From positions 8,566 through 72,565 of the forward strand of contig JABMRF010000007.1 of assembly GCA_013202715.1 (NCBI GenBank): a stretch of 64,000 nucleotides of DNA, written 5' to 3'. The position numbers were made by a program, and so were the translations under genes. Below, in pieces: positions 3,240 to 59,348 of this stretch; the stretch's first letter is position 1, and each line of letters opens with the position of its first letter. Source of the stretch: Candidatus Kuenenbacteria bacterium (GTDB lineage Bacteria; Patescibacteriota; Patescibacteriia; UBA11705; JABHMO01). The notes under the pieces were generated by a model that did no database searches, had not been told where the DNA came from, and saw nothing but the letters and a program-made list of their open reading frames with translations.

Positions 3240-3590
3240 ATGAGACACCATAAAACAACACCAAGTTTAAGCCGAAAAGTAGGCCCAAGAAAAGCATTGC
3301 TAAGAGGATTAGCAACAAGTTTGGTGTTGAATGGAAAAATGAAAACCACTCTGCCAAAGGCAAAAGCAATTCAGCCGATTGTCGAAAAATATGTAACGAC
3401 CAGCAAGAAGAAAAATCTTGCCAATCGAAGACAGTTATTGAAATATTTTTATGAAGAAAAAGCTGTGAATATATTGCTTGATGAATTGGGACCAAAATAC
3501 AAAGAACGTCCAGGTGGTTACACCAGAATTGCAAAACTTGGTAAAAGAAAAGGTGATGACGCTGAAATGGCGCTAATCGAATTCGTGTAA
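3240..3590 (+). CDS. rplQ: 50S ribosomal protein L17
   Basis: MRHHK…LSR…RKALLRGLATSL… typical L17; canonical position after rpoA. Confidence 0.9.
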   Translation: MRHHKTTPSLSRKVGPRKALLRGLATSLVLNGKMKTTLPKAKAIQPIVEKYVTTSKKKNLANRRQLLKYFYEEKAVNILLDELGPKYKERPGGYTRIAKLGKRKGDDAEMALIEFV

Positions 3591-3699
3591 ATCACGAATA
3601 GCACGAATTAGCGCGAATAAGCACGAACATCATTAGCGAAATTAAATAATGTATTTATTGGCGAATATTCGAGTGAATTCGCGAAATTAGTGATTATAT

Positions 3700-8437: not shown

Positions 8438-8959
8438 ATGCCTAAGACAAAAGAACAAAAAGAGAAAATTGTAAAAGATTTATCAGATATTATATCTTCT
8501 GCTAAGTCTGTTATAATTGCCAATCATGAAGGGCTGACTGTGAACGATGCACAATTGCTCCGCGAAAATTGCAAAGAGCAAAATGTTCAATTCGTTTCAG
8601 TCAAGAAATCTTTATTAAAATTGGCATTCGCTTCTGCTGGACTAAAAGATGTTGATACAAAAGCAATGGAAGGTAGTTTGGCTGTAGCTATTAGTAAAGA
8701 AGACGAAGTTGCTCCGGCAAAGATTCTAAAAGAATTTGCCAAAAAGCACGAGCAGGTAGTTTTCAACGGCGGAGTTTTGGAAGGCGAGATGGTCTCAGTT
8801 GAGCAAATTGAAAAGTTGGCTGAATTACCAAGCAAACAAGAACTTTATGCCAAGATCGTGGGGTCAATCAAGGCGCCAGTTTCCGGATTTGTTAATGTTT
8901 TGAGAGGAAACCTAAGTGGATTAATTAATGTATTGAATTCTATTAAAGAAACAAAGTGA
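8438..8959 (+). CDS. rplJ: 50S ribosomal protein L10
   Basis: N-terminal …K..V..L…..S…V.A.Y.GLTV.D…LR… and position before rplL. Confidence 0.85.
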   Translation: MPKTKEQKEKIVKDLSDIISSAKSVIIANHEGLTVNDAQLLRENCKEQNVQFVSVKKSLLKLAFASAGLKDVDTKAMEGSLAVAISKEDEVAPAKILKEFAKKHEQVVFNGGVLEGEMVSVEQIEKLAELPSKQELYAKIVGSIKAPVSGFVNVLRGNLSGLINVLNSIKETK

Positions 8960-9057
8960 AAAGCAAGACGAGCAAGACAAGCAAGAAAAGCAAGACGAGT
9001 AAATTTGGATACTTGTCTGGCTGGTCTCGCTGGTTTCACTTGTCTCGCTAAAATAAT

Positions 9058-9555
9058 ATGACAGACGAAAAAACAACAGCTCCAGTAGAGGAGAAGAAAG
9101 AAGCAGCTCCAGTAGCTGAGGAAAAAGTATCCACCTCCGCTGAAGCTACGGCGGACAAGGAAGAAACAAAGGATGTAGAAGTTCCAGCAAAGTTCAAATC
9201 TCTAGTTGAAGAAATTGAAAAAATGTCAGTTATGGATTTGGCAGAGCTTGTAAAAATCCTTGAAGAAAAATTTGGTGTCAGCGCTGCTGCTCCAATGATG
9301 GCTATGGCTGCCGGACCTGGCGCTGCAGCTGAAATAGAAGAAAAATCAGAATTCGATGTAGAATTAGTTGCCTGTGGTGAAAACAAAATCGCAGTTATCA
9401 AGGTTGTAAAAGAAATCTCAGGCCTTGGTCTAAAAGATGCAAAAGATCTAGTTGACGCAGCTCCAAAGGTTTTGAAAGAAGCCGTGAAAAAAGAAGAAGC
9501 TGAAGAAATGAAGAAAAAGATCGAAGAAGCTGGTGGTACTGTAAATTTGAAATAA
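9058..9555 (+). CDS. rplL: 50S ribosomal protein L7/L12 with ~40-aa N-terminal extension
   Basis: …[24 protein letters not shown]…[64 protein letters not shown]. Confidence 0.9.
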
Positions 9556-10147: not shown

Positions 10148-12367
10148 TTACTTTATGTCAGCCTCGTAAACTTTATTTCCGGAAATCAGATACATTTTGT
10201 TTCCACTAATTACAAAGTCTGCAATCGGGGCTTCTAGAGATTCAAATAAATATTGCTTGGCAAAGTCGCCGTTTTTGTTAGTTAAAATAATGCGTTTACT
10301 TCCGGCTTCGGAAATGTAAATATAGGGAAGCTCTGCTGTAGTGTAAATTTTATTGGCTTCAGCAAGAGCCGGCTCGATCAGCTTCAAGTCAAATTCCTGC
10401 AACTCTCCGGTATAAAATTTATAAACCTTGCCATCACTTGTCAAGACATAAATATCACCGTCAATAGTGAGGCTGGTTGCTTTGGAAAGATCAGCGTCTT
10501 TTTTGTCTTTGATCCAGATTTGTCCGCTACCATAGTTATTACCGCTGGCGCTGTATTTTATAATCTGCTGTCCGTTTGCATCAAGAGCGTAAATGCGCCT
10601 GTTGTAGAGCTCAGCGTGAGTGATCTTCGCGTTATCCGGCCAGGAAATTGATTTGTTTGTGAAGTTCTTTTGATCTGAACTATATGCCACCAGCTTGTTT
10701 TGATTTGTGATGAATGACAGGTTGCCGTCCTCTTCCATGCTTATTGCCAGATCGCCGTGTTCTGAATTTCCGATCGCACTTGAGGTTTTGTCTTCTGGAT
10801 TAACTTCGTAAAGAGTTAAGTCTTTGCTGTGAGTGAAAAGTTTGTCGCCAATCTTTTCAAGTTTCAGAAGATTGATTGGAATATCGTCCGGCCCCACCTT
10901 TGTAATTAATAGCGGGACTATTTTTTCAATATTCAAAAGCTTGTTTTTTATCGTTACGGACTGTTTTTCTAATTCTTCGAAGTTTGCCTTTTGGTTTGCA
11001 GTGGCTTGCGGTAAGTATTTAATAATGTCCTCAGCCTTTTTGATCAGTTCCAGACTCTTGCTGTCGTTTTTGTAAATTAAATTTATTTGAGCATCATTAA
11101 TAAGATCTTTTGCTTGCTGAATCTGAACGGCATAGATGGCTTGTTCCTCTTTTACTTGCTTGCGGTGCTTGACCCAGAAAATACTTGAGACCAATATTAT
11201 CCCAACAATTAACAAAGCAATTAGAATTGTTTTATTTAGCTTGCGCAGAGAAAATAGTTTGTCTTTTGATCGCACAACGGATGTTTCTGGGTGGGTTAGT
11301 GATTCTTTGGCTCGAAATAATTTGAGCTTTTTCTTGCCGGTGATTATTTTGAAAATGACCTTCAGTGCTTTGCCGATCGAAGTGAAGATTATTTTTATGG
11401 CATTAAAAAAATATTTAAGAATACCGAATTTCAATCTAACTGATTTATTTGGCCCTGCTAGCTGGCTTTTATCCACCTTTGATTTTTTGAAGAATTTTCG
11501 AAGGTGGGCTCTGATATTTAAGGCAAATGTTGGCGTGAGGAATTTTTCAGTTGTTTCTTTGGTTGAAATCAGTCGGGCAATTGACTTTTGGGAGACTGGC
11601 TTTTCATCAATTGACCGCTTTTCCTGCATTTTGATGAAAATCGCGCTGTATGTAAGGTGAGAATTATTTTTAACATTGTTAATCAGGCTTTTGAAATATT
11701 CAATGCCGTCACCAAATTCGTTACTGGAAAGGATTTTGTTTACTTTGTGCGGAGGAATATAGTTACTGAAAATTTCTGAACATATGAAGATAGTGTCATG
11801 GTAAAATATTTTTCCGCTGACGGTAGAAGAGAATATTTTTAATTTGCTTCCTTGCTCTTCTTTTAGTTTCGGTGTGTTATCAACAACGTTAATGACTTTG
11901 AAATTGTTCTGTTTTGTTTTGTGAAGAAGATAGGCATTGATTAATCCTTGTTGAGCAAAATAAAAATCAATATCCTTGGTTTGCAAGTTTGGTTTAGCCA
12001 CGGCGATTAAAAAGTTTAGGTTTTCTAAAACTAAACTGATGTGCCCAATCTGGATCATTTCTGTTAATGCAGTGTTGGTCTTTTGAAGAGCATGTTCAAA
12101 AACGGTTTCCAAATTTAATTTTTGAGGTTCGGGCGAAGAGTTGATCTGATCATAATAATTATCCTTCAGAGTATTGATCAGAGTCTGAATAATCTTTTCA
12201 CTCTCTGCAATTGGTGTGGCTCTAATTTCTACGATACCGATCAGGTAGCCGCCATTTTTTTCCTTTCCTTCTGGATAGATTATAAAATCCTCACAAAGGT
12301 AGGTGTCTTTGGCATGTTTTGATGGGATATAGATCTCTTCTAGTGAAATGTCGTGGTTTACTTCCAT
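10148..12367 (-). CDS. large membrane-anchored protein: cytoplasmic N-domain (~370 aa), 1 TM helix, coiled coil, C-terminal β-propeller-like repeat domain
   Basis: 739 aa; TM ILIALLIVGIILVSSIFWV; C-terminus has repeated …G.(I/V)Y(A/V)L(D/T)..G…Y strands. Confidence 0.6.
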   Translation of the reverse strand: MEVNHDISLEEIYIPSKHAKDTYLCEDFIIYPEGKEKNGGYLIGIVEIRATPIAESEKIIQTLINTLKDNYYDQINSSPEPQKLNLETVFEHALQKTNTALTEMIQIGHISLVLENLNFLIAVAKPNLQTKDIDFYFAQQGLINAYLLHKTKQNNFKVINVVDNTPKLKEEQGSKLKIFSSTVSGKIFYHDTIFICSEIFSNYIPPHKVNKILSSNEFGDGIEYFKSLINNVKNNSHLTYSAIFIKMQEKRSIDEKPVSQKSIARLISTKETTEKFLTPTFALNIRAHLRKFFKKSKVDKSQLAGPNKSVRLKFGILKYFFNAIKIIFTSIGKALKVIFKIITGKKKLKLFRAKESLTHPETSVVRSKDKLFSLRKLNKTILIALLIVGIILVSSIFWVKHRKQVKEEQAIYAVQIQQAKDLINDAQINLIYKNDSKSLELIKKAEDIIKYLPQATANQKANFEELEKQSVTIKNKLLNIEKIVPLLITKVGPDDIPINLLKLEKIGDKLFTHSKDLTLYEVNPEDKTSSAIGNSEHGDLAISMEEDGNLSFITNQNKLVAYSSDQKNFTNKSISWPDNAKITHAELYNRRIYALDANGQQIIKYSASGNNYGSGQIWIKDKKDADLSKATSLTIDGDIYVLTSDGKVYKFYTGELQEFDLKLIEPALAEANKIYTTAELPYIYISEAGSKRIILTNKNGDFAKQYLFESLEAPIADFVISGNKMYLISGNKVYEADIK

Positions 12368-12557
12368 GAAAATTAAGAATCAAGAATGAATAATGAAGAA
12401 TGCAGAATTAAGGCTGTGCGCTACTGTAGTCGCTTATTAATTCTATATTCTTCATTGTTAATTTGACTAAAAGTAAGTATCTATATTATACTATACATAT
12501 AAACAATTAATCAACTCAAAACGCCACAATAGGGGGGAAACGGCAAATGCTAAAATT

Positions 12558-13190: not shown

Positions 13191-13232
13191 AGCTGAGGCC
13201 GCGCCTCTCCCTACGTCTGGACTTGTATAATT

Positions 13233-17957: not shown

Positions 17958-18121
17958 GTAGGCAGAGTGAAGAAAAGTGGGGAATTGTGGAAGACCCTTT
18001 CATGTTTCTTATTTTCTTCATTTTTAAAATATACTGATTACGGATCAAATACGGATGTACAGATTCGTAACTGTAATCCCAAATCCGTACATCTGTACTA
18101 ATCGGTAATCCGTAAACTATT

Positions 18122-18553
18122 ATGTTTATCGGGCAATACAATTATTCAGTAGATTCAAAAGGCAGGTTAGCTATTCCGGCCAAGTTTCGGTCTGCTTTGA
18201 AATCCGGAGCAGTTGTCACAAAAGGATTGGATAACTGTCTTTTCGTTTACACTAAAACTGAATGGAATACTTATGCCAAAAAATTAGCAGCATTACCAAC
18301 AAGCCAGGCCAATAGCCGGGCTTTTTCTAGATTGATGCTCGCTGGAGCCATGGATGTGAAATTGGATTCACAGGGAAGAATTATGTTGCCTGATTATCTA
18401 AGAGCATATTCAAGTGTAAAGAAAAAGGTTGTCATTGCCGGCTTGTTTAACCGATTGGAAATCTGGGACGAAGCGAAGTGGAATCTTTACAAGAATAGAA
18501 CGGAAAAAGATGGGAATGAAATTGCCGAGCAGTTAGGTGAGCTCGGAGTATGA
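18122..18553 (+). CDS. mraZ: transcriptional regulator MraZ
   Basis: two DxxxR half-domains: VDSKGRLAIP and LDSQGRIMLP. Confidence 0.9.
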   Translation: MFIGQYNYSVDSKGRLAIPAKFRSALKSGAVVTKGLDNCLFVYTKTEWNTYAKKLAALPTSQANSRAFSRLMLAGAMDVKLDSQGRIMLPDYLRAYSSVKKKVVIAGLFNRLEIWDEAKWNLYKNRTEKDGNEIAEQLGELGV

Positions 18554-18728
18554 CGCGAATAATGCGAATATATACGCGAATGACACGAATCGCGAATATC
18601 GCAAATAGGACCTCTATGAATATTATTCGCGATTCGCGACATTAGCGTTATATATAAATAAAATAAAAACAAAAGTATGTTTAAACAATTGTTAAAAGTT
18701 CTTGAATTAATATTTATTTGGTAAAAAT

Positions 18729-19661: not shown

Positions 19662-19773
19662 GTTACGCGAATATGCATGTATGCGAATATCGCGAATCGC
19701 GAATAAGACGATTATTATTCGCATCATTCGCAATTTGCATCATTCGTATTAATATTCGCGACATTCGCGTCAT

Positions 19774-20121
19774 ATGACAAGATTCACAAAATCATTGAGA
19801 CCAGAAAAAAATTCTAACCTAAAGCGAAAGGTTAGAAAGCTATCGAAGCCAATTCTTTTGGTGGTTTTGGGGATATTTTTTGTGGGAGCGATTGGTATTT
19901 ATTTATTTCAAATAAATTACATTGCGGCAACAGGATTCCAGATTCGCGATTATGAAAAACAAATTTCTGAATTAACATATGAAAACGAGAAGATTCAAAT
20001 GCAAATAATTGAAATGAAATCTATGACAGATTTGTCAGCCAAGGTTGCTGAATTAAATATGGAACCTGTTGGCCAGATTACTTATTATGATACCAGTGGT
20101 CAGGTTGTGGCGCGGAAGTAG
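19774..20121 (+). CDS. ftsL: cell-division protein FtsL-like (single TM + coiled coil)
   Basis: 115 aa, TM helix then heptad-like region; position after rsmH. Confidence 0.6.
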   Translation: MTRFTKSLRPEKNSNLKRKVRKLSKPILLVVLGIFFVGAIGIYLFQINYIAATGFQIRDYEKQISELTYENEKIQMQIIEMKSMTDLSAKVAELNMEPVGQITYYDTSGQVVARK

Positions 20122-20621: not shown

Positions 20622-20635
20622 ACTTGTTGATTGAA

Positions 20636-20668
20636 ATAATCCTCGCCACGCGGGGATTTTTTTGTGGA
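20636..20668 (+). terminator. rho-independent terminator (AATCCTCGCC-ACG-CGGGGATT + U7)
   Basis: hairpin + TTTTTTTG. Confidence 0.7.
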
Positions 20669-20695
20669 ACAAATTAGAGCCGTAGTAGGTTTTCT

Positions 20696-20908
20696 AAACG
20701 GGGGCTCCATAGTCCCTTTGAAGCTAGACCCGTCCTTTGAAATCGGGATAGGAAGAATGAATAGCGAAGAAGGGCTGTGGAGTCCTTTTTGGGATGTTAT
20801 AAAAGCGACTTGGAAGTTTTTTAAATATCTCCAACAGGACTCCACAGCCTGTTCTTCGTTTCACTTCGAACAGGACTATGGAGCCCTCATTAAAGTAATT
20901 CTCCGTTT
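20696..20908 (+). ncRNA. candidate structured RNA / MITE-like element with two nested 21-bp helices (each: 14 perfect bp + 1x2 internal loop + 7 bp)
   Basis: 20702-20715↔20873-20886 and 20772-20786↔20836-20849 perfect complements; 20716-23↔20864-70 and 20765-71↔20852-58 extend both; ~47% GC; weak ORF potential only. Confidence 0.4.
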
Positions 20909-20984
20909 AGTATTATCGGCCCCTTTTAGTAGATGAGGACTTGATAAATATACAGTTTTGTAGTACCATTGACTAGAAAAGCAT

Positions 20985-24133: not shown

Positions 24134-24138
24134 TGAAT

Positions 24139-24225
24139 ACGTGATCTACTGATTTTCTACGTGATCTACTGATGCTAACTGTTTTTAACTCATGTAGATC
24201 AGTAGTAAATCACGTAGATCAAGTA
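24139..24225. promoter_or_regulatory. operator-like array: 2 direct + 2 inverted copies of ~15-bp motif TACGTGATCTACTGAT
   Basis: tacgtgatctactgat ×2, then …catgtagatcagtag… and …cacgtagatca; immediately upstream of lipoprotein gene. Confidence 0.45.
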
Positions 24226-24240
24226 TTATTCAATATACTT

Positions 24241-25305
24241 ATGAACAGAATTTTAAAAGCAGGAGGAACAATTTTAATTTGTATGGCCGTGTTGCTTGCA
24301 ATTACGGGTTGTACACCAAAACCAGAAAAGGTTTTACAGAAAATGATTAAAAAAATGGCCGAGGTAAATTCATACGATCTCAATGTAAAGTTGGGGGTAC
24401 ATGGACAGTTCCCACAGCTAACAACTTTAAATCTCGAGGGAGCAAAACTTTTGCCAGGTGCAATAATTTTTGATCTTATGGGGCCGGTTGATTTAACAAA
24501 AGATTTAGCATACAAATTGAGTGGTAGTGCGAAATATCGTCTCCAAGATTCAGAGATCAAGTTTGTCGGCGATTTGCTATATCAAGGCAATACGCTCTTT
24601 CTAAAATTATCTGAAATCCCGGATTTAAAAATGGCTGACTTGACTGATTTAAAAAATAATTGGTACAAATTTGATTTTGATTCTTTTGCGCTTGCAAAAC
24701 AAATAACTGACCCGAAAGAAACCAAGGTTGATGAGCAGAAAAATAAAAAGCTTAGAAAATTAGTTCAGAAAATTAATTTTTTCGAGATTGTTTCTGATAA
24801 TGGTATTGATAATCTTGACGGGATAAGAACTTATCATTACAGCATAAAAGTAAATAAAGATGCAATGGATAAATTTTTTCACGAGGCAACAGAAATATTT
24901 GAAGAAAGAAAATTAACCGCCCTTGAAGAAAAAGAGCTTGATAAAAACTTGGAAAATTGGAGTCAGATAACCGGTCAGGTTTGGGTTGGAGAAAAGGATT
25001 ATTATTTATACCGAATTGAGCTTGGTACACAAGTGGAAAGTGAAGACTCAGGTACCACTCGATACGATATGGCATTAGATCTTCGGGATTTTAATAAAAA
25101 GTTTGAAATAAATGAACCGGAGAATGTGCGTGAATTTAACATGGCAGAAATCTTTATGCCTGGACTTGATTTAGCCTTGCCAGAAGCTGGAAGTGGGGAC
25201 ATTAACAGTGTTGAAGAAATGCTAAAAGGTATTGAGGGTGTAAGTGACGAAGAACTACAGAAAAAATTAGATGAATTGAAAATTGAATTAGATAAAGTTA
25301 AATAA
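24241..25305 (+). CDS. hypothetical lipoprotein (lipobox LAITGC)
   Basis: MNRILKAGGTILICMAVLLAITGC… signal peptidase II site; ATG 24241 preferred. Confidence 0.55.
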   Translation: MNRILKAGGTILICMAVLLAITGCTPKPEKVLQKMIKKMAEVNSYDLNVKLGVHGQFPQLTTLNLEGAKLLPGAIIFDLMGPVDLTKDLAYKLSGSAKYRLQDSEIKFVGDLLYQGNTLFLKLSEIPDLKMADLTDLKNNWYKFDFDSFALAKQITDPKETKVDEQKNKKLRKLVQKINFFEIVSDNGIDNLDGIRTYHYSIKVNKDAMDKFFHEATEIFEERKLTALEEKELDKNLENWSQITGQVWVGEKDYYLYRIELGTQVESEDSGTTRYDMALDLRDFNKKFEINEPENVREFNMAEIFMPGLDLALPEAGSGDINSVEEMLKGIEGVSDEELQKKLDELKIELDKVK

Positions 25306-25375
25306 ATTGTTAAATTGTTAGATTGTTATATTGTTAAAACAATTTAGCAATATGGCAATTTAGCAATATAATTTT

Positions 25376-26137: not shown

Positions 26138-26280
26138 ATTGAAATTTTATAGAAATAGGAAAGCGGGCTGGATGTTGTCCGCTTTTCAGTTTGAAAAATG
26201 ATGAAATTTTGCTATACTATTACAGCATGTCGATCCTAATTAAACAAAAAAAACGAGTCAGAATTCATTCTGGCTTTTCC

Positions 26281-28161
26281 ATGGCTTCAACAAAAAATAG
26301 ACGAGATTATCGCCTGGCTTTATTGATGTTGTTTTTTATTGTATTTGCTTTACTAATGCTTGGTCGACTATTCAAATTACAAATAATTGATCGTGATTAT
26401 TATCTAGCCCTAGCTTCTGGTCAGCATGAAATTTTCAAACAGTTGTATCCAGATAGGGGCACTATTTACGTAAAAGATAAGGAGGGAGATTTTACTAAGG
26501 GCGCTCAGAGTGTTTATCCTGTGGCAATCAATAAGAGTATGTATTTATTGTACGCAGTGCCACAAGATATTAGAGATCCAGAAACCGTACTTGGCGCCTT
26601 GAAAGAGGTTTTTGAGATAAAGGATGAAGTTTCAGCTGACGAAGTTGTACCTACGGAAGAAGTAGCAACTGAGGAGCAGACTGAAGAGGCAAAGCAATTG
26701 GAAGATATTGAGGGATTAAATCCGTTAACGGTTGATGAAGAAAATCAGTTGTTGGCTGAAGGATGGAAATATAAATTAAACAAAACAGATGACCCTTATG
26801 AGCCATTGAAGCATCTAGTCGACGAAAAGGAAATTGAAAAAATTAAAGCCTATAATCTGGAGGGAATATATTGGACAAAGGAGGTTTCCAGATATTATCC
26901 GGAAAAGAATATTGGTAGTCAGCTGATTGGTTTTGTCGGCAAACAGGCGGAAAATAACATGCTCAAGGGATATTATGGACTTGAGGGTTGCTATAACAAG
27001 GAATTAGGAGGAGATGCTGGATTTTTGCGTTCAGAATTGGACACTTTTGGACGCTGGATTGCCGTAGCTGGCAAAGATTTTAGGAAAGCTGAAGATGGTT
27101 ACAGTTTAGTTTTGACAATAGATAAGTCGATTCAATATTATGCTTGTGATCAATTGAACAAATTTGTTGTTCAGTTTGATGCTGAGGGCGGTAGTTTAAT
27201 CGCCATGGATCCGATAACTGGCGAAATTATGGCCATGTGTAATAATCCTGATTTTGATCCCAATCTTTATAATAAAGTTGAAGATATCAGTGTTTTTAAT
27301 AATTCCAGCCTATTGGCAAATTATGAACCCGGCTCAGTGTTTAAACCTCTCACTATGGCTGCGGCGCTTGACACTGGCAAGGTTGATCCATTTACAGGAT
27401 TTCAGGATACCGGTGAAGTGAAAATCGGACCACACACAATTAGAAATTCAGATTTCAAAGCCAATGGTTGGCAGACTATGACTGAGGTATTGGAAAAATC
27501 ATTAAATACGGGCGCAGTATTTGCTGCGCGACAAGTGGGACTTTCAGAATTCAAAAGATATATAGAAGGGTTTGGTTTTGGAGAAAAAACCAATGCTGGA
27601 TTGTGTAATGAGGGAAGCGGTGATCTTCGTTCATTGGATGAAAAAGGAGATATTTATTTGGCAACCGCCTCATTTGGTCAGGGAATAACAACAACCCCAA
27701 TTCAATTAGTTCGCGCCTATGCGGCAATTGCCAATGAAGGAAAACTTGTAGAACCCTACGTTGTTGATTCAATTGTAGATGACAAAGGAAATGTGATTCA
27801 AAAAACAGAACCAAAAGTTATTGGCCAGGTTATTTCACCTCAAACTGCAAGATTACTTGGCAGTATGTTGGTTTCAGTTGTAAAGTCCGGGCATGCGAAA
27901 AAAGCGGGAATCCCAGGATATCTAGCTGCCGGAAAAACCGGAACAGCGCAGGTGCCTGATCCAATAAAGGGAGGCTATAGCGACAAAACAATTCACACCT
28001 TCCTTGGTTTTGCACCGTATAATCAGCCCAAGTTTGCAATGATTGTTAAACTGGATAATCCAACTGCCGTAGAATTTGCTGCAGATTCTGCAACTCCACT
28101 ATTTAGTAAAGTAGGGAAGTTTATTCTTGATTATTATGAAGTTCCAACAGAAGTAAAGTAA
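26281..28161 (+). CDS. ftsI: peptidoglycan D,D-transpeptidase FtsI/PBP2 (class B PBP)
   Basis: SVFKP (SxxK), KSLNTG (SxN), KTGTA (KTG) motifs; TM anchor; dcw context. Start 26281 (alt 26191/26227). Confidence 0.85.
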   Translation: MASTKNRRDYRLALLMLFFIVFALLMLGRLFKLQIIDRDYYLALASGQHEIFKQLYPDRGTIYVKDKEGDFTKGAQSVYPVAINKSMYLLYAVPQDIRDPETVLGALKEVFEIKDEVSADEVVPTEEVATEEQTEEAKQLEDIEGLNPLTVDEENQLLAEGWKYKLNKTDDPYEPLKHLVDEKEIEKIKAYNLEGIYWTKEVSRYYPEKNIGSQLIGFVGKQAENNMLKGYYGLEGCYNKELGGDAGFLRSELDTFGRWIAVAGKDFRKAEDGYSLVLTIDKSIQYYACDQLNKFVVQFDAEGGSLIAMDPITGEIMAMCNNPDFDPNLYNKVEDISVFNNSSLLANYEPGSVFKPLTMAAALDTGKVDPFTGFQDTGEVKIGPHTIRNSDFKANGWQTMTEVLEKSLNTGAVFAARQVGLSEFKRYIEGFGFGEKTNAGLCNEGSGDLRSLDEKGDIYLATASFGQGITTTPIQLVRAYAAIANEGKLVEPYVVDSIVDDKGNVIQKTEPKVIGQVISPQTARLLGSMLVSVVKSGHAKKAGIPGYLAAGKTGTAQVPDPIKGGYSDKTIHTFLGFAPYNQPKFAMIVKLDNPTAVEFAADSATPLFSKVGKFILDYYEVPTEVK

Positions 28162-28298
28162 AGATCAAGGAGCAAAGATCAAAGAGCAAAGTAGGCGTAA
28201 AGCATAAAGATAAAAGCATAAAGAAGTGGCTCATAGGAATCCTTCTTTAGTCTTTTTCCTTGCTCTTTTATCTTCCTTTGATCTTAGCCCCTTGATCT
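28162..28298. repeat. word-hairpin spacer: (GCAAAGATCAARG)n forward then reverse complement
   Basis: aaagatcaaggagcaaagatcaaagagcaaag … ctttgatcttagccccttgatctttgc. Confidence 0.7.
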
Positions 28299-28328
28299 TT
28301 GCCCTTAAAACTGCTATACTTACGAAAT

Positions 28329-29606
28329 ATGAAACAAATCCTAGAAAAATTATTAGCAATACTGGCTCGAGCGATTATTCGGAAATATAAACCGAAAGTA
28401 ATTGGAATTACCGGGTCAATGGGGAAGACTTCTGCCAAGGAGGCTGTTTTTTCGGTTCTAGAGAGCAAGTTTAATGTGCGCAAGAATATTAAAAACTATA
28501 ATAATGAAATTGGAGTTCCTCTCACTATTATCGGATTGGAAAGCGGTGGAAAATCCCCGATCAAATGGGGGATAGTCTTTGCAAGCGCACTGAAACAAAT
28601 TTTAATTAAAAATAAGAAATATCCAGAGATGCTTGTTTTGGAAATGGGGGCGGACAAGCCGGGAGATATTGAATACTTAGTGAAGATTTCTCCTTGTGAT
28701 ATCGGTGTTGTAACATCGATTGGCCCAGCTCATTTAGAGGAATTCAAAACTATAGAAAATATTGCTAAGGAAAAACAAAAGATTGTTACGCATTTGAATA
28801 AAAATAATACTGCAATTCTAAATCGTGATGATGAATTGGTCAAGAAAATGCATCAGAGAGTCAAAGCAAATATAATATATTTTGGTTATGATGAGGCTGC
28901 TAATATCCGCGCAATAGATATGCATCACCATGGAGAAGGGCTTGATCTCTCTGGAATAAAATTCAAAATAGCATTTGGTGGAAGTACAGTCCCGGTCATG
29001 GTACCAGGAGTCGTTGGTGCTCATCAGATCAATTCCGCTCTCATTGGCGCTGCGGTAGGTGTCGCTGTCGGGATGAATTTGATAGAAGTTTCTGAAGGAC
29101 TGAAGAATTACAAGTCCCCTAATGGCCGAATGAGTTTGGTTCCGGGCGCGAATAACACCCTTATCATTGATGACACTTATAATTCATCACCTCGCGCGGC
29201 TCATGCGGCTCTGGATACGCTTGATAAGCTCAATATTGAGCAGGTAGAGCGGAAGGTTGCTATTTTGGGGGATATGCTCGAGCTTGGCGATTATTCAGAC
29301 GAGGCGCACATTGAGCTTGGTAAAAAGGCGGTAGAGTCTGGAGTTGATCTTCTGATTTCTGTCGGAAAGTTCAGAGACTTAGTTTTACAGGGCGCAAAGG
29401 CTGCTGGGTTAAGTGAACAAAATATGTGTTCATTTGAAGATTCAATAAAAGCAACTGAACAAATAAATGAACTGATTAAAGCTAATGATTTGATACTTGT
29501 AAAAGGCTCTCAAGGGTCTCGAATGGAGCGAGTTGTGAAGAAATTGATGAAAGAGCCAGAAAAAGCTGAACAATTGCTGGTGCGGCAAGATGATAGCTGG
29601 AAATAA
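28329..29606 (+). CDS. murF: UDP-N-acetylmuramoyl-tripeptide--D-alanyl-D-alanine ligase (Mur ligase, MurF-like)
   Basis: GITGSMGKTS P-loop, …DDTYNSSP… C-domain motif. Confidence 0.8.
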   Translation: MKQILEKLLAILARAIIRKYKPKVIGITGSMGKTSAKEAVFSVLESKFNVRKNIKNYNNEIGVPLTIIGLESGGKSPIKWGIVFASALKQILIKNKKYPEMLVLEMGADKPGDIEYLVKISPCDIGVVTSIGPAHLEEFKTIENIAKEKQKIVTHLNKNNTAILNRDDELVKKMHQRVKANIIYFGYDEAANIRAIDMHHHGEGLDLSGIKFKIAFGGSTVPVMVPGVVGAHQINSALIGAAVGVAVGMNLIEVSEGLKNYKSPNGRMSLVPGANNTLIIDDTYNSSPRAAHAALDTLDKLNIEQVERKVAILGDMLELGDYSDEAHIELGKKAVESGVDLLISVGKFRDLVLQGAKAAGLSEQNMCSFEDSIKATEQINELIKANDLILVKGSQGSRMERVVKKLMKEPEKAEQLLVRQDDSWK

Positions 29607-35049: not shown

Positions 35050-35244
35050 GTAATAGGTAATAGGTAATAGGTAATAGCTTATAGACTGAAGGGCTAAAAG
35101 GTCCTTTTTTTGTTTTTAAATAGTTATCCACAGGTGATCCTTGCTGTTCGTATTTTGTTCGGTTATAATAAATATATACGAACAGAAACCGAACTGGAGA
35201 ATAAAATTTTCAATTTCCAATTTCTAGTTTACAATAAATTTTCA

Positions 35245-35631
35245 ATGACAAAATTTTCAAATATGAGTAGTAATAATAACAAATATGATTTAGAAGAAAG
35301 GACCGCCAAGTTTGGTGAGGATATTATTGATTTGTGTCAAAAGATAGAGAAAGATTTCATTAATCGTCCAATACTAAATCAATTACTTCGTTCAGGAACC
35401 TCTATTGGGGCGAACTATATGGAAGCAAATGGTGCCAGTTCAAAAAAAGATTTTCGTAATAAGATTTTTATTTGCAAAAAAGAAGCTCAAGAGACAAAGC
35501 ATTGGCTGCGTATGACTAAAAAGGCTATTTCAATTGAAAATCAAAAAGTAGAATATTTGGCAAATGAAGGACAAGAATTGATATTCATTTTTCAAAAGAT
35601 AACGAGTTCCTTGGACAGTAAAAAGGTTTGA
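35245..35631 (+). CDS. four-helix-bundle protein (TIGR02436 / '23S rRNA intervening-sequence protein' family), copy 1
   Basis: …FINRPILNQLLRSGTSIGANYMEA……EAQETKHWL… family hallmarks; start uncertain (35110/35245/35263). Confidence 0.6.
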   Translation: MTKFSNMSSNNNKYDLEERTAKFGEDIIDLCQKIEKDFINRPILNQLLRSGTSIGANYMEANGASSKKDFRNKIFICKKEAQETKHWLRMTKKAISIENQKVEYLANEGQELIFIFQKITSSLDSKKV

Positions 35632-35697
35632 AAATTAAAAATTGTAAATTTAATGAAAATTGTAAAATTGAAAATTATAAATTAACCATCATATCGT

Positions 35698-36769: not shown

Positions 36770-37096
36770 TTAATAAAATATGGCAAGGGAGTTGAATATT
36801 TACAAGCCCCGAACCACTTACGTACTTTGTTCGTTTGGGTTCAGGGCAAGCATGGATATTTAACTCCGCTCTTGCCGGAAAAAAAGTATGTCTAAAAGAA
36901 AAATAAAAAAAGCTTACAGAGAAGTCAAATGTTTTTGGCAAGATTTAACAATTAACATCTAAATTTATGAAACAAGTTACTTTCGTTCCGCTAACTCCGG
37001 ATTTAATTATTAAGATTAAAGTTTAATTATGACAAACGAGGAGCTTAAAAAGTCGATTCTTACGTTTTTGAGGAGATTGGTGGAATAAAAAAATTT

Positions 37097-37757
37097 CTGC
37101 CCCACTTTAGTGGTTTCAACTCCCTCTCATTGTGTTTTTGCTATGGGCTATAAATATTACCCTAACAACATGTATTTTATTACTTATAAAACCTTCATGG
37201 GAAAAAAGTTTTTTGATACAGATGAGAAAAAGGGGATAATTACAGGGCAAATCAAAAAAGCTCAAGAAAAATTAGAATTGGATGTAAGAGCTTTTGCTGT
37301 GATGTCTAATCACTATACTATCATCTTCTAGTTAAATGTATTTATGGATTAAATATTACAAAGTCTTTACAATTGATAAATGGCGGCGGATCCTTTTTGC
37401 TTAAAAAAATAACAGGAATTCATCAAAGTTTATGGGGAGAAGAAAAATTTAGCAAACTTCTCTATGATGAAGATTCTTATTGGCGAGTTTTTGTATATAT
37501 TATTGGTAATCCATTGAAACATAATTTAGTGAAGGATTTAAACGAATTAGAAAATTATAAACATTGTAATTATGGAGAACGCCTAAAAGAGTCTGATAAG
37601 GAGTCTTTGCATAATTTAATTTTGGAAAATCAGAAATTTGATTTTGAAACAGACGAGGCCTGGAAGAAGTTATATGGTAGTGCGGAAGAAACCACTAAAG
37701 TGGGGCAGAAATTGTTTAATTAGGATTGGTGTGGAAGAAACCACTAAAGTGGGGCAG
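37097..37757 (+). mobile_element. degraded REPtron-like element: RAYT/IS200-like Y1 transposase remnant flanked by inverted REP-like palindromes (CCACTAAAGTGG core)
   Basis: left ctgccccactttagtggtttc (37097-37117) is the reverse complement of right gaaaccactaaagtggggcag, present twice (37686-37708, 37734-37757). Confidence 0.6.
37110..37723 (+). pseudogene. RAYT/IS200-like tyrosine (Y1) transposase, disrupted by frameshift (two ORFs 37110-37331 and 37373-37723)
   Basis: …LDVRAFAVMSNHYTIIF* (HxH-like motif, cf. …YAYCLMPNHVHLL) then …SLWGEEKFSKLLYDEDSYWRVFVYIIGNPLKHNLV… (Y-containing C-terminal half) in a different frame. Confidence 0.55.
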
Positions 37758-39351: not shown

Positions 39352-39425
39352 CGGTATTTGAAGGAGTGACTTAACCACAATTCGCTCCTTTTGTTTTACA
39401 AAGAATTTTGCTATAATCTGACTAT

Positions 39426-43349: not shown

Positions 43350-44598
43350 AATAAATCACATCGCTAAAACTGAAGGCCACCTAAGTTTTGTCGGCGCTAT
43401 GCTGGACAATAATTTTGCGCAGGCACATATTGAAACTGAGGAAGGCGCGCGCTTGATTGAAGGAATCTTGCTGGGCCGGAAATATTACGAGGCACCGATC
43501 ATAACTTCCAGAATTTGCGGAGTTTGTCCGATTGTGCACAATCTAACTTCAATCAAAGCAATGGAAAGTGCTTTGAATGTCAAGGTCACACCGGAAATAA
43601 TATTGCTCAGAAAAATTCTAGAAAATGCGCAGATAATTCACAGCCATGCTATCCATGCTTACTTTTTTTCCTTTCCGGATATTATTGGCGTTTCTAATAA
43701 TTTCAATTTGATAAATAAATTTCCCAAGGAGTCGAAAATTGCGCTCGAAGTACGAGATTGGGGCGTGCAATTGGCTCGAATTATCGGTGGCAGAACTGTG
43801 CATCCGATCAATAGCGTGATTGGTGGGTTCAACGTTGAGCCGGATTTGAAAGAGCTTGATGAATTTATGGCTATGAAAGATGAAGTTTTGAAAAAGGCGG
43901 CTCAGATCTACAATTTTGTAATTAAGTACAAGCTTCCTAAATTTCAGCGACCGACAAATTATGTTAGCCTGAAATCAAATAGTGAGTACGCTGTTTATGA
44001 TGGCAAAATATATTTTTCAGACAACAAGAGCTATGATTCAGCGGAAACATTTTTGAGGGATGTGCAGGAAATAGTTTTACCTCATGAAAAGGTAAAGCGA
44101 ACGCAACATTTGGAGCGTGCCTTTATGGTCGGCGCACTGGCGCGACTGAATAACAGTTTTGACCAATTAAATCCAGAAGCCAAGAAGGCTTGGAACAAAT
44201 TGAAAATTAAACTGCCATGTTACAATTCATTTTATAATATTTTGGCGCAGGTGGTTGAAATTGTAAATTGTATTGAGGAACTCGAGAAGGATTATAAGCT
44301 ATATAAGAAAATCAGCGACAAGAAATTGTTGGTTGAAGTCAAACCGCGATCCGGAAAGGGATACGCAGTGATGGAAGCTCCTCGTGGACTTTTGTATCAT
44401 GAATATGAATTAAATGCGCAGGGAAATATTTTGCACTGCAATGTGATTACACCAACTGCCATGTTTTTGGCCAACTTGGAAAAGGATCTGGAACAGTTAT
44501 TGCCACAAATCAAAAATTATTCTGACAAAAAACAAAAAGATTTGATCAAAACCTTAATTCGCGCCTATGATCCTTGCATCAGTTGCGCAACCCATTAG
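43336..44598 (+). CDS. hydA: [NiFe]-hydrogenase large (α) subunit
   Basis: N-terminal RICGVCPIVH (RxCGxCxxxH) and C-terminal DPCISCATH (DPCxxCxxH) Ni-Fe ligands. Confidence 0.85.
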   Translation: MKTIKINHIAKTEGHLSFVGAMLDNNFAQAHIETEEGARLIEGILLGRKYYEAPIITSRICGVCPIVHNLTSIKAMESALNVKVTPEIILLRKILENAQIIHSHAIHAYFFSFPDIIGVSNNFNLINKFPKESKIALEVRDWGVQLARIIGGRTVHPINSVIGGFNVEPDLKELDEFMAMKDEVLKKAAQIYNFVIKYKLPKFQRPTNYVSLKSNSEYAVYDGKIYFSDNKSYDSAETFLRDVQEIVLPHEKVKRTQHLERAFMVGALARLNNSFDQLNPEAKKAWNKLKIKLPCYNSFYNILAQVVEIVNCIEELEKDYKLYKKISDKKLLVEVKPRSGKGYAVMEAPRGLLYHEYELNAQGNILHCNVITPTAMFLANLEKDLEQLLPQIKNYSDKKQKDLIKTLIRAYDPCISCATH

Positions 44599-44642
44599 TC
44601 ATGAATCCTGAAACATGAAACATAAATCATAGGGCTTGAGGT

Positions 44643-45020
44643 TTGAAACATGAAGCAATTACTTATATGATTGAAACATATCACCAAGCATTAAGGAAAA
44701 AAATGAATGATTATGCTCATTTGGTTTATAAGATCACAAGGGACTTTCCAAGAGAGGAATTGTACGGTGTTACAAGTCAGTTGAGAAGAGCTTCTCTTTC
44801 GGTAATTTTAAATTATATTGAGGGATATGCTCGGATTAAGGATAAAGTGCATAAGAATTTTTTAGAGATATCCTATGGTTCCTTGAAAGAATCTGATTAT
44901 TTGTTGGAATTTTCAAAAGACGAAAAGTATATCAATAGCGACCAAGATTATATAGTAGCCAGAAAGCTAGCAGATGAAATTGGCGCTATGCTTTGGTCTA
45001 CAATAAAAGGACTCGATTAA
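44643..45020 (+). CDS. four-helix-bundle protein (TIGR02436 family), copy 2, flanked by inverted repeats
   Basis: …ELYGVTSQLRRASLSVILNYIEGYAR……SLKESDYLLEF…; flanks 44599-44642 / 45021-45088 share CATGAAACAT-type words in inverted orientation. Confidence 0.6.
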   Translation: MKHEAITYMIETYHQALRKKMNDYAHLVYKITRDFPREELYGVTSQLRRASLSVILNYIEGYARIKDKVHKNFLEISYGSLKESDYLLEFSKDEKYINSDQDYIVARKLADEIGAMLWSTIKGLD

Positions 45021-45088
45021 AGACATAAAATGTGAATCGTTGTTAACATTTATGATTCAAGTTTTATGCTTCATGTTCCAAGACTAAT

Positions 45089-51410: not shown

Positions 51411-51536
51411 ATTAAGAGCAGTTAAAAGGTAAAATGTCCCGCGTGACGGGATCCCGCTACGCGGGATAAAAGTTAAAAGTAATCGATTTATTGTCTTTGT
51501 ACTATTAACTTTGAACTTTGAGCTTTTAACTAATGT

Positions 51537-53461: not shown

Positions 53462-54094
53462 ATGGAAGAGTTTCTTACAAATATCTATCATTACATTAAC
53501 TATTTGCCCCTAAAGGGCTATGGTGTAATATTTTTATTTTCGTTTCTAGAAGCTTTTGCTTTCGTCGGAATTTTATTTCCCGGAACAATAATTATTGTTT
53601 TGATTGGTCTTTTGTCATATCTTGGTCACTTTAATATTGCTTTAGCCTTTGCCGCAGCCGTACTTGGCGCCCTGGCGGGTGACTTGGGCAGTTATTATTT
53701 GGGCAAGAAAAAAGGACTTGATTTGAAATTAGGAGACAAAGGAATATTCAAATTTCTATACATGCCTGAAGCCGGAGAGTTCTTGCTTGAAGGCGGCGGA
53801 ATAAGTATTATTACTGGTAGATTTATTGGTCCTACGCGAGCATTTGTTCCGTTTTATATGGGCGCAGCAGGTGAAAAAGAAAAAAAGTTTATTATTTACG
53901 ATGTGGTTGGCGTTCTTGTTTGGGCAGCTTTTTATTTAATGCTTGGATATGTTTTCGGTAATTCGTATGAATTTGTAAAACAATTTATCAGTGGTTTGCA
54001 GTTTTTTGTAATTCTTTTTATAGTTCTTACTGTTGGATCCTTGGTTTTAACAAAATTATTTAAAAAGAAGTTACCAGATTCAGGTAAAAAGTAA
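53462..54094 (+). CDS. DedA/VTT-domain membrane protein
   Basis: …GYGVIFLFSFLEAF…LFPG… DedA motif. Confidence 0.7.
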   Translation: MEEFLTNIYHYINYLPLKGYGVIFLFSFLEAFAFVGILFPGTIIIVLIGLLSYLGHFNIALAFAAAVLGALAGDLGSYYLGKKKGLDLKLGDKGIFKFLYMPEAGEFLLEGGGISIITGRFIGPTRAFVPFYMGAAGEKEKKFIIYDVVGVLVWAAFYLMLGYVFGNSYEFVKQFISGLQFFVILFIVLTVGSLVLTKLFKKKLPDSGKK

Positions 54095-54166
54095 ATTGTT
54101 ATACTGTTGTATTGTTATATTGTTCAAAAACAGTATAGCAGTATGGCAATATAACAGTATAATCCG

Positions 54167-55162
54167 ATGAAAAAGTATTTAATTGTAGTAATTTTAATTA
54201 TAATAATATTTGCGTTCTATTTTGCAAATCAGATTTATAATTTTAATGACAATCAGTTTGGAGATAAGGTTTTTGTAATTGAAAAAGGTCAGAGTGTTGA
54301 GCAGATTGCAAAAAACTTGCAGGAGCAGGGAATTATTAAAAGCTCTTTTTGGTTCAAAGTTTATGTTTTTTCTACTGGCAACAAAGCCAAATTTGTTGAC
54401 GGTGAATTTAGTTTACGCACGGATACAAATTTGAAAACGATTGCCCATGAATTATTAACCCAAAGAGAGACAAATGAAGAGGTTGATATAACATTACTGG
54501 AAGGATGGACCATCGAACAGATGGATGAATACTTAGCCGTAAAATTATTGATCGAGCAGGGGGACCTCATTGATTACACAAAGAAATTTAACGATAAAAG
54601 TTGGTTTTTCTTAATTGATAGACCGAAAAAGGCCAGCCTGGAGGGATATCTTTATCCAGATACGTATCGAGTATACCAGCAAACAACGCCGGAGCAGATT
54701 GTAAAAAAAATGTTGGATAATCTGGAGACAAAATTAACTGAAGAATTGAGAGCGCAGATAAAGGCACAGGACATGTCCGTCTTTGAGATAATTACCCTGG
54801 CCAGCATTGTTGAGCGAGAAATGTTTGGCTATGAAAATCGTCGTGTTGTCGCAGAAATATTTTTGAAAAGACTAAAGATAGGAATGGCCTTACAATCGGA
54901 TGCAACTGTTAATTATGTAACTAGAAAGGGGATTGCCGCCCCCAGTCATGATGATATTCGAGTTGATAATCTATATAATACATACATGTATCCAGGCCTG
55001 CCGCCAGGTCCAATTTCAAATCCAAGTATTGAGTCGATCAGAGCTGTATTAAATCCAACAAAAACAGATTACTGGTATTTCCTGAATACACCTGAAGGCG
55101 ATATCATTTTTAGCAAAGACCATGATGAGCACGTAGCAAATAAATTTAAATACTTAAAATAG
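54167..55162 (+). CDS. mltG: endolytic murein transglycosylase MltG (YceG-like)
   Basis: LEGYLYPDTYRV and downstream …SIVEREM… motifs; N-terminal TM. Confidence 0.8.
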   Translation: MKKYLIVVILIIIIFAFYFANQIYNFNDNQFGDKVFVIEKGQSVEQIAKNLQEQGIIKSSFWFKVYVFSTGNKAKFVDGEFSLRTDTNLKTIAHELLTQRETNEEVDITLLEGWTIEQMDEYLAVKLLIEQGDLIDYTKKFNDKSWFFLIDRPKKASLEGYLYPDTYRVYQQTTPEQIVKKMLDNLETKLTEELRAQIKAQDMSVFEIITLASIVEREMFGYENRRVVAEIFLKRLKIGMALQSDATVNYVTRKGIAAPSHDDIRVDNLYNTYMYPGLPPGPISNPSIESIRAVLNPTKTDYWYFLNTPEGDIIFSKDHDEHVANKFKYLK

Positions 55163-55237
55163 TCTTGAGTCAAAATTCAGAAGTCTTGAGTTGTTAACTC
55201 CAGACTTTTGACCCTAGACTTTTGACTGGTAGTAAAT

Positions 55238-58854: not shown

Positions 58855-59348
58855 TAATTTGATTATAGCAAATTTTCACAAAAAAAATAGCACCGGCTAT
58901 TTTGTGCAATCCTTGTTTGTCATTTCTCTTGGTTTGACCCAGTGATTTCAGGCTTTTTATCACCTGTTATTTGGTGTCCAGTGACCAGTATGACGGGATT
59001 GCAACGAAGCTCGGTGCTCTGTTTGGTTTGCTGCGCGACGGGTCGTGGCGTCTTCTCGCAGACTAAGATCCCTAGTGGGTCTCTTCCGTGTTCGGACTAA
59101 TTGTCAGTAACTCTTGGCATCGCCCTCCTTTTTGAATTCGAAGCCAGGATGTAAGATTGTGCCCACTTTTCACATGGGCACAAGCATTGTAACGAATTAT
59201 TTTCTCAATGTCAATCGCTTTTGTGGATAAAAAAAAGAGCGCTGAGGTGAATCAGCGCTCGAGGTGCGGTTTTTAGCCGCAAATCATAGTTTGCCTCCCT
59301 GTTTCTTGATGCTCTTGTCCTTATCAGGACCTAGATCAGTGACTGCAT

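Follow-up and report, generated by a model that had tools for sequence, protein, structure and literature searches.

The closest described counterparts of the structures considered here are the intervening sequences (IVS) of rRNA genes and the tandem heptamer arrays of intergenic DNA. The IVS in helix 45 of the Coxiella burnetii 23S rRNA has a 28-bp terminal inverted-repeat stem, a decaying S23p four-helix-bundle open reading frame (ORF), and GACAGAT heptamers in two or three copies among strains, and RNase III cuts within its stem, at the first heptamer (PMC4990558). The rRNA genes of candidate phyla radiation (CPR) bacteria contain 23S_rRNA_IVP ORFs and, at IVS sites, also short insertions that lack an ORF (PMC11270868), and these bacteria keep rnc, rnj, and pnp, which encode RNase III, RNase J, and PNPase (PMC12641178). 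Among heptamer arrays, Xanthomonas genomes each hold 70–75 GGGAATC arrays as convergent inverted pairs (Rehm et al. 2015, PMC4692102), TAACTGA intergenic heptamers end beside start codons (PMC4679880), and the short tandemly repeated repetitive (STRR) heptamers of cyanobacteria form a further case (Mazel 1990, as cited in PMC4692102). Work cited in the same article attributes the over-representation of heptamers in bacterial intergenic DNA to polymerase slippage (PMC4692102). Here, we analyzed stuttered palindromes (a tandem array of a short word, followed by an array of its reverse complement) in a 64,000-nucleotide (nt) stretch of a Candidatus Kuenenbacteria bacterium genome (Patescibacteria; assembly GCA_013202715.1, contig JABMRF010000007.1, positions 8,566 to 72,565; hereafter, the window), and in particular the one at 28158-28304, in the gap between a penicillin-binding protein (PBP) gene and murF (the target). 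Loci fetched for comparison are designated L001, L002, and so on.

On an evenly balanced judgment for the class as a whole, these hairpins are IVS-like, hairpin-bounded mini-cassettes and their ORF-less remnants, shaped by slippage of whole repeat units. The window hairpins appear to be empty shells of such cassettes, not purely home-grown repeats, and for the target as such a remnant our confidence is lower than for the class. The target and the two gene-carrying cassettes of the window are as follows:

28158 to 28304, + strand: target stuttered palindrome, defined by tandem words, minimum free energy (MFE) fold, and identification of the flanking genes
44594 to 45088, + strand: cassette 1, inverted-repeat score 22, outer stem kept in the MFE fold
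35205 to 35683, + strand: cassette 2, found by a hidden Markov model (HMM) hit, inverted-repeat score 26 versus 15 for the direct control

The left arm of cassette 1 (44594-44631, CATGAAAC words) overlaps the upstream TAG stop, its four-helix-bundle ORF lies at 44703-45020 (TIGR02436, E 2e-27), and its right arm (45051-45088) extends up to the ATG at 45089. Cassette 2 consists of a left arm at 35205-35261, a four-helix-bundle ORF at 35245-35631, and a right arm at 35627-35683. Since arms surround both four-helix-bundle genes, the window holds two complete cassettes. Cassette 2 is inserted 3' of the lexA promoter/LexA-box region and 5' of the lexA ATG at 35698; this 480-nt cassette thereby splits the LexA-box pair from the lexA start, and hence the lexA transcript either crosses the cassette or starts elsewhere. 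The LexA-box-like pair itself (GTTCGTATTTTGTTCGGTTATAAT...ACGAACAGAAACCGAAC) is conserved 5' of lexA, at 35130-35200 in the window and at 17500-17558 in L001.

An HMM census of non-redundant loci returned 14 four-helix-bundle genes, each of which was given a flanking inverted-repeat score. Thirteen were enclosed (11 with a score of at least 21, one with 15, and one, the window gene 35245-35631, with 26 after correction of its mis-called start), and for the remaining gene, with a score of 12, no inverted repeat was convincing. The GxxExxY genes of related loci were likewise enclosed by hairpin arrays (2/2). As a background, a score of 20 was reached by 26 of 648 genes encoding fewer than 200 aa and by 7 of 1,124 larger genes, and the top-scoring small genes that were identified were mostly four-helix-bundle or GxxExxY genes, plus one GIY-YIG-like gene. 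For example, the GxxExxY gene of L001 (TIGR04256, E 2e-27) lies inside a stuttered palindrome, and both the window and L002 lack this entire 544-nt unit at that lexA junction. Such near-constant enclosure is left unexplained if heptamer slippage hot spots and template switching simply build inverted arrays in any non-coding DNA, as a neutral by-product with neither function nor mobility.

The association extends to cultured organisms outside Patescibacteria. Stuttered inverted arrays flank genes annotated as S23 ribosomal protein or four-helix-bundle on plasmids of Calothrix PCC 7716, Picosynechococcus PCC 7003, and Gemmatirosa kalamazoonensis. On the Picosynechococcus PCC 7003 plasmid, the gene lies between cas10/cmr2 and cmr3. 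A copy from Pseudanabaena, placed between cas6 and cas4, is immediately preceded by a heptamer hairpin (TAAAGC-type), and one Nostoc copy showed no flanking array. The plasmids of Pseudanabaena and Picosynechococcus (L182 and L185) carry four-helix-bundle genes wedged into CRISPR-Cas operons. In the literature, we found no account of four-helix-bundle genes flanked by heptamer arrays outside rRNA, nor of such hairpins in Patescibacteria.

Several features are shared with the rRNA IVS of Coxiella, Leptospira, and Salmonella. In those elements, terminal inverted repeats form a long stem, an S23p/four-helix-bundle ORF (PF05635/TIGR02436) optionally occupies the loop, as it does at 44594-45088 and 35205-35683, strains differ in how many tandem heptamers the stem region has, and the ORF decays, so that ORF-less versions exist; the target likewise has no ORF. 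However, the window contains no rRNA, every element occupying a gap that separates protein-coding genes, or a gene from its promoter, rather than an rRNA helix, and the arms are long multi-unit arrays. Because of their location outside rRNA, we call the elements IVS-like and do not file them as IVS. The Xanthomonas GGGAATC arrays share with them an intergenic tandem heptamer array with an inverted array nearby, and a length that differs widely between close species, but consist of one G-rich, quadruplex-forming word genome-wide, in contrast to the many A/T-rich words here, and no link to enclosed genes is reported for them. Cyanobacterial STRR and TAACTGA heptamers are similarly confined to intergenic DNA as tandems that often end beside start codons, and the four-helix-bundle genes of cyanobacterial plasmids are also flanked by heptamer arrays. 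Nonetheless, descriptions of these repeats mostly concern a few words that recur genome-wide in direct orientation, and do not cover hairpin pairing or a relation to cassettes. Unlike all of these systems (STRR, TAACTGA, and GGGAATC), the window has more than 10 words in 64 kb, of which only those at 25306 and 54095 are clearly related.

Several comparisons suggest that cassettes move between genomes with their arm words. The cassette 1 protein has homologues with 65%–76% identity in Wolfebacteria, Paceibacterota, and Aminicenantia. These are far closer than the housekeeping protein MurF, which is nearest to that of Candidatus Falkowbacteria and other Patescibacteria (at most 73% identity to the nearest relative, ~50% to other Patescibacteria); the best match to the window in a scan of genome contigs was also 73% identity in murF. 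The Wolfebacteria and Aminicenantia homologues (72%–73% identical) share the cassette arm word NTGAAAC/GTTTCAN, in an arm running from directly after the upstream stop into the first ORF codons. A second four-helix-bundle lineage (L018, L108, and L104) has common CTAATTN arms. Gene-less hairpins are related to cassettes as well: the one in the MraY-MurD gap of L064 (12396-12496) matches the left arm of the GxxExxY cassette of L145, located in another gap (92% over 36 nt, E 3e-10), and the gene-less hairpin in the PBP-murF gap of L001, a junction orthologous to that of the target, matches the right arm of the L004 cassette. The first-pass annotation had argued that the palindromes are not a dispersed mobile repeat. 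That argument is not supported, given the inheritance of a word with the four-helix-bundle gene across phyla, gene-less arms homologous to cassette arms at other junctions and in other genomes, and the paralogous hairpins at 25306 and 54095 (83% identity over 72 nt, E 2e-8). Neutral array formation equally fails to explain why arms are homologous between junctions and between phyla.

The direction of change can be read at one junction. L021 and L104 share a site 3' of murF, where L021 retains both arms and the first ~10 and last ~15 codons of a four-helix-bundle ORF that is intact in L104. Retention of the ORF ends between the arms identifies the change as an ORF deletion. This bears on a rival account in which each palindrome is generated locally, by slippage and hairpin-templated (quasi-palindrome) correction in its own spacer, the RNA stem being selected to insulate, terminate, or stabilize transcripts, and genes lodging in or beside hairpins that already exist. 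L021 is a deletion within a cassette and not an insertion into a hairpin, and arms that travel with genes across phyla are likewise at odds with local generation.

An internal deletion with the same termini is the relation expected of MITEs (miniature inverted-repeat transposable elements), and it was found for L021/L104 and L064/L145, neither pair involving the target. Like MITEs and repetitive extragenic palindrome (REP) doublets forming hairpins (REPINs), the gene-less palindromes would be short, non-autonomous, hairpin-forming derivatives of a gene-carrying element in intergenic spacers. The difference is that neither a transposase nor a target-site duplication nor any conserved terminal sequence was found here, and that the enclosed genes are not known transposases. 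REPINs are hairpins also placed after stop codons, and CTAC/GTAG occurs within some of the window words. Mobilization in the manner of REPs, by a REP-associated tyrosine transposase (RAYT) or IS200/IS605-type tyrosine transposase acting on single-stranded DNA hairpins, could further draw on two collinear weak matches to a RAYT at 37110-37331 and 37373-37723 (E ~1e-6, below the curated cut-off). This gene is fragmented, however, has no Pfam hit, and falls below threshold; more than 10 unrelated words in 64 kb stand against the one conserved, many-copy palindrome expected, and no flanking tetranucleotide is conserved across sites. We therefore consider this origin very improbable. The two ORFs match N-terminal positions 6–62 and C-terminal positions 101–142 of NF047646, lie upstream of a DinB-family gene, and look like a degraded IS200/RAYT-like gene; the pair is not homologous to the 81–82-aa ORF at the same position in L001 and L002. 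Integron attC sites were rejected, given that the flanking genes are syntenic housekeeping genes (mraZ-rsmH-ftsI-murF; ORFs beside the L10 leader) and that arms occur on both sides of a small ORF. A CRISPR reading was considered and set aside.

The target hairpin fits its gap closely. It starts at the TAA stop of the PBP_dimer/Transpeptidase (PBP/FtsI-like) gene at 26191-28161 and ends 25 nt 5' of the ATG of murF (Mur ligase) at 28329. Its left arm (28158-28226) comprises 2.3 copies of the 14-mer AAAGATCAARGAGC, the opening copies reading AAAGATCAAGGAGC AAAGATCAAAGAGC, and then degenerate AAAGNNN 7-mers, so that the three clean word copies of the first-pass annotation were not recovered. A loop at ~28227-28241 is followed by a right arm (28242-28304) that is an imperfect reverse complement of the left. 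The region 28156-28305 folds into a single 57-pair hairpin (−51.6 kcal/mol, z −6.1, 0/200 dinucleotide shuffles as good). The final right-arm word is also the TTGATC −35 element of a predicted murF promoter, TTGATC-17-TATACT (with a TG-TATACT −10 box), at 28292-28320, which ends 8 nt before the murF ATG.

At this PBP-murF junction, the words of the window, L001, and L057 are unrelated to one another. In the Patescibacteria relative L038, the spacer (3545-3640) holds four short tandem hairpins with TTTA/TAAA loops (CCGAGC-TTTA-GCTCGG, GTGAAGC-TTTA-GCTTCAC, GGCGGC-TAAA-GCCGCC, and CCGACTT-AAA-AGTCGG), and L035, 90% identical to L038, has a heptamer hairpin at the same place. A public 1505-bp contig from this strain (L003; JGI Ga0335114_11658450) opens, at 1-170, with window ~28185-28340 in reverse complement, joined to the target right arm. 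We rejected this contig as a strain variant and regard it as a fold-back assembly or library chimera at the palindrome. In practice, such hairpins break assemblies, as at the target, and mislead gene callers, several ORF starts having been called inside hairpin arms.

The six palindromes listed in the first-pass annotation (8960, 12368, 25306, 28162, 54095, and 55163) are all present where it placed them and with the words it gave. RNA MFE folds were compared with 200 dinucleotide shuffles, and left-arm periodicity was assessed at lags 6–16 against 1,000 shuffles. Fold energies were far in excess of the controls at all six sites (z −4.4 to −8.9, 0/200 shuffles as good in every case), and periodicity was significant at five (P ≤ 0.001), with P = 0.02 at 55163. 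Stems of window hairpins are 25–57 pairs long, and periods of 7, 8, 9, 14, and 16 occur. Of 43 merged tandem blocks (period 6–16), 25 fall within the intergenic 13% of the window, an approximately nine-fold enrichment. About ten further gaps beyond the six sites show the same design. No match to Rfam was obtained at the window hairpins in either gathering or E-value mode.

Placement was surveyed for 55 strictly defined hairpins in the window and 163 related loci. The left arm typically starts −6 to +13 nt from the upstream stop codon, and the right arm typically ends −7 to +20 nt from the next start, an exact stop-to-start fit that neutral array formation also leaves unexplained. In the window (~37% G+C, almost every gene on the + strand), most genes have a TATAAT-like box 3–10 nt before the ATG (e.g., 12546-12557, 13225-13232, 25364-25375, and 39410-39425), and a Shine-Dalgarno-like motif precedes only ~11 of 69 genes. 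Hence, this Falkowbacteria-like organism appears to use mostly leaderless or very short-leader mRNAs.

Array length changes in whole units in related Patescibacteria, as the slippage proposed in the first-pass annotation predicts. L035 and L107 (99.9% identical) differ by exactly one TAACGCA unit, L034 and L035 by 56 nt (two 28-nt units), and L038 has ~17 units versus 4 in the 90%-identical L035, with a completely different PBP-murF spacer. In the Pyrinomonadaceae relatives L064 and L073 (80%–86% identity), a hairpin is kept at 5/6 orthologous junctions, whereas the two arms jointly switch to a new word (TCATTTA to TCAGTTG; GAAAATN to GTGAACN) and also change in unit number. This concerted change fits arm-to-arm homogenization or selection for pairing. 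Observed unit slippage and the persistence of hairpins through word change are both expected under local generation as well.

Across all fetched loci, tandem-repeat rows were dominated by period 7 (275 rows, versus 143 for period 8 and 40 for period 6). A reverse-complement partner within 220 nt was found for 107 of 590 non-redundant tandem blocks, compared with 19 (reversed) and 28 (complemented) in controls, and 57 of the 107 hairpin blocks have period 7. The density of ~5–6 blocks per 100 kb is alike in Falkowbacteria-like, other Patescibacteria, and Acidobacteriota loci (the last being Pyrinomonadaceae, Blastocatellia, and Chloracidobacterium), and L064 and L080 hold very clean examples. 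Two other detectors were less informative: a 7-mer word search allowing one mismatch gave no more reverse-complement matches than controls (too permissive), and self-BLAST with an autocorrelation filter recovered only two window sites (too strict). The dominance of period 7 over period 6, a pattern attributed to polymerase slippage in work cited in PMC4692102, the fast turnover of spacers between 90%-identical genomes, and mismatches that are symmetric between strands all suit a neutral by-product. Set against gene enclosure, shared arms, and placement, they leave that explanation improbable in our judgment.

The palindromes are not ordinary terminators. A T run after the stem is lacking at 8960, 28162, 54095, 55163, 24134, and 18554, and a terminator scan flagged only 25317-25364 among the stuttered hairpins, whose stems are long and A/T-rich. 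Classical terminators with a GC stem and T run occur separately, chiefly in convergent gaps, and three stuttered hairpins (12368, 18030, and 51418) lie in divergent gaps beside gene starts. Intrinsic (Rho-independent) termination was rejected on these grounds. The same observations reduce the appeal of local generation under RNA-level selection, as no transcript 3' end is expected in divergent gaps.

At 25306 and 54095, six G-U pairs each are found, on the sense strand only, which favors local generation with RNA-level selection. These two sites and 1037 are the only ones with a much better sense-strand fold. Overall, G-U and A-C mismatches were balanced, both in the window (42 versus 35) and in 41 hairpins between co-directional genes (42 versus 45, no sense bias). 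Bulk evidence for RNA-level selection is therefore lacking, and complementarity is upheld strand-symmetrically. This symmetry fits DNA-level slippage with arm-to-arm correction; an RNA function is neither supported nor excluded by it. Local generation also draws on the words themselves, which are mostly unique per gap and are unrelated at the same junction not only at PBP-murF but also 5' of Band_7, in the window versus L002. The first-pass annotation had stated that each spacer has its own word; this holds for most, but the 25306/54095 pair is paralogous, and CGAAT and ATCCG words reappear in several gaps. Taken together, we consider purely local generation unlikely, albeit a stronger contender than neutral array formation; both are partly compatible with an origin from cassettes.

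Several results weigh against the cassette-and-remnant explanation. For the target (28158-28304), neither a cassette-arm homologue nor an ORF remnant was detected; with no traceable cassette relative, its membership of the class is argued from shared design alone. The missing G-U strand bias bears on the transcript-level part of the explanation. We identified no transposase, target-site duplication, or mobility mechanism, and no filled/empty pair close enough for junctions to be read. The uniqueness of most words is equally consistent with local generation, and chance is expected to account for some of the short A/T-rich heptamers that loci have in common; because 275 period-7 A/T-rich blocks predict many coincidences, such sharing was not used as evidence. 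Copy-number variation between strains, which the first-pass annotation expected of slippage, is borne out in relatives but not in the organism's own population, where no difference was seen at 25306, 54095, or 55163 in 4–5 assemblies from five samples; these assemblies are clonal (99.94%–100% identical), so the comparison has almost no power.

Under the cassette explanation, a complete cassette would consist of a left arm, a small ORF (S23p/IVS four-helix-bundle or GxxExxY PD-(D/E)xK), and a right arm, each arm being a tandem array of one 7–9-nt word, placed exactly between a stop codon and the promoter or start of the next gene. Cassettes would spread horizontally with their word retained, and subsequent ORF deletion would leave hairpins without a gene, 28158-28304 being one. 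Slippage by whole units during replication could make and renew the stutter, with arm complementarity kept by arm-to-arm correction or selection for pairing. By analogy with rRNA IVS, RNase III may cut the transcribed long stem and separate the flanking RNAs harmlessly. With nearly every gene having its own promoter a few bases before the ATG, such cleavage would explain why insertions are tolerated and accumulate, and the residual stem could shield the upstream mRNA 3' end from PNPase.

More tentatively, and with rather less than even confidence, we propose that these elements represent a widespread, so far undescribed class of selfish mini-cassettes, in which a four-helix-bundle or GxxExxY gene is held within inverted arrays of a lineage-specific heptamer or octamer. 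Such cassettes would insert at stop/start junctions, among them junctions within operons (cas6-cas4, cmr2-cmr3) and the site that separates lexA from its promoter. They would cross between phyla, and cleavage of the transcript stem would render them harmless; rRNA IVS and STRR-type arrays would be special cases or debris, and the gene-less palindromes of Patescibacteria and Acidobacteriota would be remnants. If this is true, two very large protein families whose function is unknown (four-helix-bundle/S23p and GxxExxY) would gain a genomic context and a hypothesis open to testing. Three oddities described separately so far (the intervening sequences of rRNA, the heptamer repeats of intergenic DNA, and the inverted heptamer arrays) would be linked, and much of the non-coding DNA of streamlined Patescibacteria genomes would be explained.

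Other palindromes of the window are as follows:

8962 to 9049, + strand: stuttered palindrome, GCAAGACRA x4, then CTTGTCTSG-type x4, period 9
12375 to 12467, no strand assigned: stuttered palindrome, AAGAATN words, period 7; 12366-12470 fold z −4.4
25303 to 25372, + strand: stuttered palindrome, ATTGTTAN x4, then NAGCAATW x4; 25300-25372 fold z −8.5
54092 to 54164, + strand: stuttered palindrome, fold z −8.9, 5' of the YceG-family gene 54167-55162
55160 to 55228, + strand: stuttered palindrome, AGTCTTGAG words, then AGACTTTTGAC words, period 14; 55160-55232 fold z −5.5
24136 to 24227, + strand: stuttered palindrome, TACGTGATCTACTGATTTTC x2, then its reverse complement; z −7.2
18552 to 18655, + strand: palindrome, CGCGAATA/ACGAAT words; z −5.1
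19662 to 19775, + strand: weaker palindrome, GCGAATAT, then ATTCGC words; z −2.5 only
3588 to 3699, + strand: weaker palindrome, CACGAATTAG words; z −2.8
18030 to 18115, + strand: palindrome, ACGGAT/ATCCGT words, divergent gap, adjoining the start of gene 18122-18553
51418 to 51536, + strand: palindrome, GTTAAAAG, then CTTTGAAC words, around a GC-rich inner hairpin; gap z −6.7
1030 to 1064: site of the same design, missing from the first-pass list

The palindrome at 8962-9049 lies between ORF 8438-8959, downstream of the L10 leader, and ORF 9058-9555 (8958-9052 fold z −6.0; periodicity P = 0.001 in both arms). That at 12375-12467 is in a divergent gap, adjoining the start of the minus-strand gene 10148-12367, and that at 51418-51536, also in a divergent gap, ends at the ATG at 51537. 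The six G-U pairs of 25303-25372 on the + strand compare with zero on the − strand, and its right arm contains TTAGCA-17-TATAAT, ending 3 nt before the ATG at 25376. The word of 24136-24227 was found again 5' of murF in L006, and 18552-18655 and 19662-19775 have a 17-mer in common. The palindrome at 55160-55228 separates the YceG-family gene from a Translin-family gene. At position 1323 of L178, corresponding to window 55160, a single-nucleotide polymorphism (SNP) changes the YceG stop from TAG to CAG and extends the ORF by two codons into the left arm of this hairpin; only one other SNP separates the population assemblies over 3.4 kb.

Some structured regions lack the stuttered design. A very long, G+C-richer nested hairpin without stutter occupies 20697-20891 (gap 20622-20984, gap z −8.4), with arms at 20697-20715/20873-20891 and 20773-20804/20818-20849, 3' of a classical terminator and 5' of the TGT gene. 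Rfam gave only generic miRNA-precursor matches (20748-20871), and the hairpin is unrelated to the stuttered ones. Two further segments, 58855-59283 and 59515-59684, cover ~800 nt with few genes and negative GC skew. The first folds strongly (z −5.5) and had no Rfam match even at E ≤ 1; an unannotated minus-strand RNA may lie here. Between the lexA-linked 155-aa gene and the DinB-family gene, a structured region is conserved in the window (36770-37109), L001 (19174-19529), and L002 (14691-14911), with a hairpin (GGGAGTTGAATATTTA...GGATATTTAACTCC) that shows compensatory differences between genomes, followed by a conserved micro-ORF of ~19 codons (MTNEELKKSILTFLRRLVE). Finally, at 11279-12260 in L002, the 5' part of a tRNA-Glu gene occurs three times, the first two copies each being followed by a GIY-YIG gene and the third being an intact tRNA, an arrangement that suggests a GIY-YIG element has inserted serially into the tRNA gene.

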